Translations under genes and position numbers: made by a program
NCBI GenBank assembly: GCA_029856145.1
Contig: JAHQWK010000001.1
Location: forward strand, 384,001-448,000
Direction: 5' to 3'
Source: Promethearchaeia archaeon
Lineage (GTDB): Archaea; Asgardarchaeota; Lokiarchaeia; Sigyniarchaeales; SOKP01
DNA: 64,000 bases
The notes under the pieces: model-generated
Databases searched by the model: none
What the model was told of the DNA's origin: nothing
What the model saw: only the letters and a program-made list of their open reading frames with translations
Part shown: in pieces, positions 40,688-41,109 of the stretch
Position numbering within the stretch: position 1 is the stretch's first letter
Layout of the letters: each line of letters opens with the position of its first letter

Positions 40688-40803
40688 TGTTGATTTTATC
40701 TAATTTTATTTGGCGAAAATCAAAAAATAAATAAATTATAATACATAATTGTACTAAATCAATTGAATTATTTTCGCATTAACAATCATTAAGGTGTATC
40801 GAA

Positions 40804-41109
40804 ATAGTCAAGCACAGAGGATATAGGAAAAAAACACGGCATAAGCACAGGAAAAATGTTCGTAAGAGAGGTTTAGGTTCAGTTGAAAAATATTTAATTG
40901 ATTATAACACAAATGATAAAGTAGATATAATTACAGATTCTTCCCAACATAAACAAGGAATGCCTCATTCTAGGTATCATGGACGTACTGGAACAATAAT
41001 CGGTCAACGAGGGCGCTGTTATTTAGTTGAGGTGAAATTAGGAAATTCTAAAAAAACCTTAATAATTGGAAAGGAGCATATTAGATTAAATTCTGTTTCT
41101 ATAAAATAA
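40804..41109 (+). CDS. rpl21e: 50S ribosomal protein L21e, missed by the ORF track; ATA start
   Basis: Manual translation (M)VKHRGYRKKTRHKHRKNVRKRG...GMPHSRYHGRTGTI...KEHIR; conserved position between pus10 and rpoF. Confidence 0.93.
   Translation: MVKHRGYRKKTRHKHRKNVRKRGLGSVEKYLIDYNTNDKVDIITDSSQHKQGMPHSRYHGRTGTIIGQRGRCYLVEVKLGNSKKTLIIGKEHIRLNSVSIK

Follow-up and report, generated by a model that had tools for sequence, protein, structure and literature searches.

A probable AUA start codon in the ribosomal protein gene rpl21e and proposed Shine-Dalgarno-positioned near-cognate starts in a lokiarchaeial genus

The window analysed here is a 64,000-nt stretch (384001–448000) of contig JAHQWK010000001.1 (C9; assembly GCA_029856145.1) from a Promethearchaeia archaeon, whose draft genome (3.55 Mb, 30% GC) is incomplete and contains gaps. 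The gene for ribosomal protein eL21, rpl21e, occupies positions 40804–41109 on the + strand (101 codons; stop codon 41107–41109), between pus10 (39329–40687, +) and rpoF of the Rpb4 family (41135–41500, +), which starts with ATG. An in-frame TAA (40780–40782, +) bounds the reading frame upstream, 8 codons before an ATA (40804–40806, +), and the earliest in-frame ATG, GTG or TTG is the ATG of codon 53 (40960–40962, +). An AAGGTG Shine-Dalgarno (SD) sequence (40791–40796, +) is separated by the 7-nt spacer TATCGAA (40797–40803) from this ATA, the inferred start codon, which opens the run ATA-GTC-AAG. The open frame and the SD distance are as given in the original prediction, as is the comparison with mch (GTG 2130) and gcvH (ATG 16731), whose start codons also lie 7 nt past GGTG. 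Because pus10 ends 116 nt before the ATA, its stop codon does not overlap the rpl21e start. An A-rich element upstream of rpl21e (40716–40735, +), kept in nearly all relatives, is a putative BRE/TATA promoter and as such would imply a leadered rpl21e mRNA. Structurally the leader is unremarkable (z = 0.86). Conservation extends over 40716–40766, where a CTACTAAA-like word occurs; a similar word lies at 59835–59865, before rps12. We rejected CTACTAAA as a signal of ribosomal genes, since it is common elsewhere and was not specific in a simple scan.

The frame opened by the ATA encodes a protein that scores 100.1 bits against PF01157, above the cut-off, with residues 3–95 covering positions 3–98 of the 101-position profile. 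Against PDB chains of archaeal eL21, the alignment begins with its residue 3 at their residue 4. The gene is present in a single copy, and its context, pus10-rpl21e-rpoF-DUF655-ksgA, is conserved. The ATA, the SD and the spacer are identical in 10/10 other assemblies of the species (from JGI, ENA and Logan, several of the ENA ones possibly sharing one study). This agreement between assemblies rules out a base-call error, and ATG was seen in none of them. We consider it very highly probable that rpl21e is an intact gene with an AUA start at 40804.

We compared the codon aligned with Met1 of rpl21e in 46 close relatives (65–100% identity, mostly of the same genus) and found ATA in 14, ATC in 8, TTG in 8, ATT in 6, ATG in 6 and CTG in 4. 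At least 22 codon changes have occurred at this position on a five-protein tree of the relatives; no state differs from AUG by more than one mismatch, and codons −1 and −2 are free to vary. Each of the 12 Leu-type alleles has TTG or CTG. Together these two make up 13% of the Leu codons in the genome, as opposed to 51% for TTA, so that position 1 does not simply encode an aliphatic residue. An upstream in-frame canonical codon is absent in 27 of the 32 near-cognate alleles. GGTG is found 6–8 nt upstream in 30/32 near-cognate alleles (27 of them at exactly 7 nt) and in 0/14 ATG or TTG alleles. On average, 6.8 of eight phylogenetically independent pairs vary in this direction and none in the opposite one (sign test, p ~ 0.016). 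Across 20 other-family genomes the eL21 start is ATG, TTG or GTG, apart from one ambiguous ATT. The covariation of codon and SD in relatives supports the SD-directed AUA initiation that had been proposed for rpl21e.

Several other genes appear to need near-cognate starts. The XPD-like helicase gene (20044–22022, +) has GGTG at 20044–20047 and ATA at 20055, with its nearest canonical codon 64 codons downstream; as judged from the frame, it is a second forced near-cognate start in the window. Its inclusion as a further case was upheld by the congeners, in which 22 of 24 alleles are ATA (21) or ATT (1), and the lone ATG allele has GCTG in place of GGTG. The position of rps12 (59874–60318, +), also named in the original prediction, is less clear. 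An ATA at 59884 follows GGTG (59874–59877) at 6 nt, and across 30 genomes ATA occurs in 15, always at this spacing; however, a 6-nt spacing also places the SD's own GTG (59875) in frame, three codons earlier, which leaves the start ambiguous. A near-cognate ATA start for rps12 is likely. In uS14 the start is ATA in 9, ATT in 10 and ATC in 1 of 20 congeners, compared with an in-frame ATG in 20/20 other-family genomes, and uL15 has an ATT start in about 9/19 congeners. Within this genome eS26 (ATT), eL34 (ATT) and eS30 (ATA) are also forced. Initiation factor aIF1 has an invariant ATT in 21/21 congeners, directly before the zinc knuckle and with no canonical codon upstream of the knuckle; it has ATA in three other families (G056, G059 and G067), while most other Asgard aIF1 genes that were parsed start with ATG, GTG or TTG. 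The combination of ATG with GGTG at 6–8 nt is common at other genes and was found in no case at rpl21e, XPD or uS14. Apparent forced cases in uL14 were discarded as artefacts in which the core column is the Met itself. In addition, uS3 is split across two reading frames (C8, ~31450, −), probably through an assembly error.

Genome-wide counts were made over 2413 genes of a home-made gene model. Of 58 non-canonical codons, only ATT (p = 4e-6) and ATA (p = 2e-5) are enriched 6 or 7 nt past GGTG, where the excess amounts to about 46 near-cognate and about 50 canonical starts. At spacing 7 in gene 5′ zones, near-cognate codons make up 35/90 of the non-canonical codons, as against 43/394 at frame-matched control spacings (p = 2.6e-9), and the excess at this one spacing is 28 near-cognate starts. 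The same test inside genes gave 45/405 versus 166/1627, with no enrichment (p = 0.32). Near-cognate starts peak at GGTG+7, whereas ATG starts occur at spacings of 5–10 nt and also with GGAG or GAGG motifs. Near-cognate starts can thus be estimated in at least about 45 genes of the genus, or ~2% of modelled genes, including 5 of ~45 ribosomal protein genes examined; the ~2% is a minimum, as the count leaves aside weaker forms of the SD and numerous short, basic genes. With the enrichment at SD spacing and the forced starts in other genes, the suggestion of systematic non-canonical start use holds, and its converse, in which all relatives carry ATG and ATA is not enriched, does not (ATG was found in 6/46). 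The full set of near-cognate candidates, background included, numbers 69, and the genes are functionally mixed. Candidates named by eye are an IleRS-like gene (ATT, C4:39287, +), a TFB-like gene (ATC, C9:98185, −), a nucleotidyltransferase-like gene (ATT, C24:3407, −), a ferredoxin-fused protein (CTG, C19:4609, +) and an HdrC-like gene (ACG, C26:17682, +).

In the spc cluster, forced near-cognate starts account for 30/296 gene-genome cases in the genus and 1/280 in other families, a contrast to which two genes supply most cases and in which the genomes are related to one another. The excess at GGTG+6/7 is weaker in a 1.2-Mb sample of a sister-family genome (14/42 versus 34/206, p = 0.014; ~8 near-cognate and ~28 canonical starts). 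When this genome was compared by homology only, forced cases were 11/403 versus 7/403 (p = 0.48; several are artefacts), and genome-wide specificity to the genus is therefore not established. A forced ATT at GGTG+7 is also present at eS26 of G055 (C1, ~1718550, −), a genome of the same order that consists of one 6,035,313-bp contig with three 16S genes. Given the sister-family excess, the eS26 case and the aIF1 ATA alleles in three families, the habit appears to be strongest in this genus and rarer in sister families, and is not unique.

The 16S 3′ end, GAUCACCUCC in three same-order genomes, is complementary to GGUG(A), its CACC matching the GGTG core of the rpl21e SD; in this genome that end is unassembled, and the anti-SD is known from the same-order genomes. 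Among congeners, aIF1 is present in 33/36 with its zinc knuckle kept, the initiator tRNA is canonical in 8 (A1, CAU anticodon, three G-C anticodon pairs), and the aIF2-beta zinc finger is intact. The uS9 protein ends in Arg. A Sui-like fidelity defect through loss of aIF1 or an altered initiator tRNA is not indicated in the congeners. In the machinery compared, which for aIF2 covered the beta subunit, the sole lineage-specific change seen is the loss of a conserved aIF2-beta Glu: in the LxE(L/V/I)(G/A)T motif it is replaced by K, S or T in 9/9 aligned congeners and is kept in other families and in Methanothermobacter, Pyrococcus and Sulfolobus chains. The relaxed aIF1/aIF2 fidelity that had been suggested is not shown by these features. 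In this genome's assembly aIF1, aIF2-beta and the initiator tRNA were not found. We rejected gene loss, because the neighbours of aIF1 are missing too and all three genes share a contig in several relatives, lying within ~25 kb (G010:C57, G024:C31); one assembly gap is the simplest explanation. Initiator tRNA genes of congeners have introns at differing positions (anticodon loop, variable region or T-arm) or none, and a tRNA-Sec gene is present in this genome (C8:12915-13007).

Based on the codon and SD patterns, SD-positioned near-cognate initiation with an ordinary initiator tRNA is in our judgment the probable mode of rpl21e expression, and we hold it with good confidence. In this model, GGUG of a leadered mRNA would pair with the 16S anti-SD and keep the codon that follows after 7 nt in the P site; there, Met-tRNAi (CAU) would be accepted despite one mismatch, at the third base for AUA, AUU and AUC or at the first base for CUG and UUG. 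Exact SD spacing would compensate for the weak codon, such that near-cognate alleles need the SD and AUG alleles do without it. Output from AUA would presumably lie below that from AUG. In Sulfolobus, AUU is rejected by aIF1 in vitro (PMC4705826), and its acceptance here would require that this check be softened in some way. The aIF2-beta Glu replacement may be one candidate; it cannot explain the sister-family cases, since the sister-family genome with the GGTG+6/7 excess has the Glu.

Reviews list AUG, GUG and UUG as the only archaeal start codons (PMC7531240, PMC6237735), and SD sequences are described as rare in Lokiarchaea (PMC7531240, PMC12993045). The proposed mode resembles archaeal SD-led initiation in its GGUG, its fixed spacing, its canonical initiator tRNA and the presence of aIF1, aIF1A and aIF2 in the genus, but differs in using near-cognate starts that would depend on the SD in a group in which SDs are described as rare. 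An ATT start has been reported for Kariarchaeaceae atubA, in an Asgard archaeon (PMC13394414). There too the N-terminus needs an ATT at RBS distance and the database entry is truncated, but the case is a single gene from another class, presented as a rare exception and without lineage-wide or compensation analysis. It was the only Asgard ATT start that we met in the open literature, to which the search was confined, and no account there describes near-cognate initiation across an Asgard lineage. These archaea carry the eukaryote-type start-selection core of aIF1, aIF1A and aIF2. If about half of the GGTG-led starts at 6–7 nt here are AUA or AUU, as the counts suggest, with essential genes dependent on them, near-cognate genes would offer natural substrates for studying the trade-off between the e/aIF1 checkpoint and the SD.

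What allowed such starts to spread is a separate question. A weakening of proofreading specific to the lineage (in aIF1, aIF2 or the P site) could have made AT-biased mutation from ATG to ATA or ATT nearly neutral. This account is compatible with SD-positioned initiation and differs over the cause; we regard it as plausible but less likely than not. It is favoured by the spc cluster contrast, by the aIF2-beta replacement and by the third bases of the uS14 start (A 9, T 10, C 1, G 0), whose composition is close to that of four-fold sites (A 41%, T 40%, G 10%, C 9%). Against it are the retained aIF1, the intact A1 and G-C pairs of the initiator tRNA, the uS9 C-terminal Arg and the aIF2-beta zinc finger, along with the Glu-bearing sister-family genome and the G055 eS26 ATT. 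On drift versus selection the genes differ: the third bases at uS14 are distributed much as at four-fold sites, while the aIF1 ATT is invariant.

A less likely alternative is that weak starts were selected as an aIF1-sensitive control, aIF1 limiting itself through its AUU and the same stringency setting the output of ribosomal and information genes. The invariant aIF1 ATT with no canonical option, its ATA counterparts in three other families and the absence of ATG with a well-spaced GGTG at rpl21e, XPD and uS14 would all fit, and there is a parallel in E. coli infC (IF3), which has an AUU start (Butler et al. 1987, as reviewed in PMC4705826). In both systems an essential translation gene has an AUH start, and in the congeners the fidelity factor aIF1 itself has AUU; however, infC stands nearly alone and its feedback is proven, whereas here dozens of genes are involved, ATA, ATT, ATC and CTG interchange, and feedback is hypothetical. 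The missing ATG is also expected from AT-biased drift, the affected genes are functionally mixed, and the canonical starts of most other Asgard aIF1 genes parsed do not follow the pattern. It is correspondingly doubtful, though conceivable, that in this genus a near-cognate gene set including aIF1 and several ribosomal proteins is tuned by start-codon stringency, possibly via the aIF2-beta change, as an archaeal feedback of the eIF1/IF3 type that would reach core genes.

Editing or special decoding of the AUA, either by A-to-I conversion to AUI read as AUG or by a modified, mitochondria-like initiator anticodon, seems improbable: at rpl21e and XPD no allele is as frequent as ATA, but ATT, ATC, CTG and ACG replace one another at such positions, for which one edit or wobble modification would be insufficient. 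More improbable still is a start at the GTG within the SD (40794) followed by a frameshift, or at the internal ATG 40960. That GTG opens a 10-codon frame and databases call the 49-aa form, but the GGTG-to-codon spacing varies from 6 to 8 nt among relatives with an unconserved spacer, outgroups have ATG or TTG at the same aligned position, and the short form is a stub without half of the Pfam domain, even though residues 1–52 are conserved. Sequencing error or a pseudogene can be practically dismissed, since draft gaps and one split ribosomal gene weigh little against ATA in all ten other assemblies, a single-copy gene and near-cognate codons in 32/46 relatives.

If SD-positioned near-cognate initiation is as common as the counts indicate, gene calls will be affected. 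In public databases eL21 of this species is present solely as the 49-aa stub from ATG 40960. Other eL21 records are mis-extended from a wrong codon (P0012, P0035, P0039) or cut to 49 aa, whereas NCBI records UCC21305.1 and NVM35415.1 correctly place the start of MVKHR at ATC or ATA. NCBI table 11 thus allows initiators like those proposed here, but they are used inconsistently across eL21 records. The expectation that callers miss or truncate core genes is borne out by the stub, and is too broad in that some NCBI records put Met at ATA or ATC, so that near-cognate starts are not always missed. When a marker gene like eL21 is truncated or mis-extended, phylogenomic markers and N-terminal domains can be distorted, as can SD counts taken from annotated starts. 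Elsewhere in the window, a small Rab-like GTPase frame (45967–46557) has its earliest Met, at codon 33, inside the first conserved strand.
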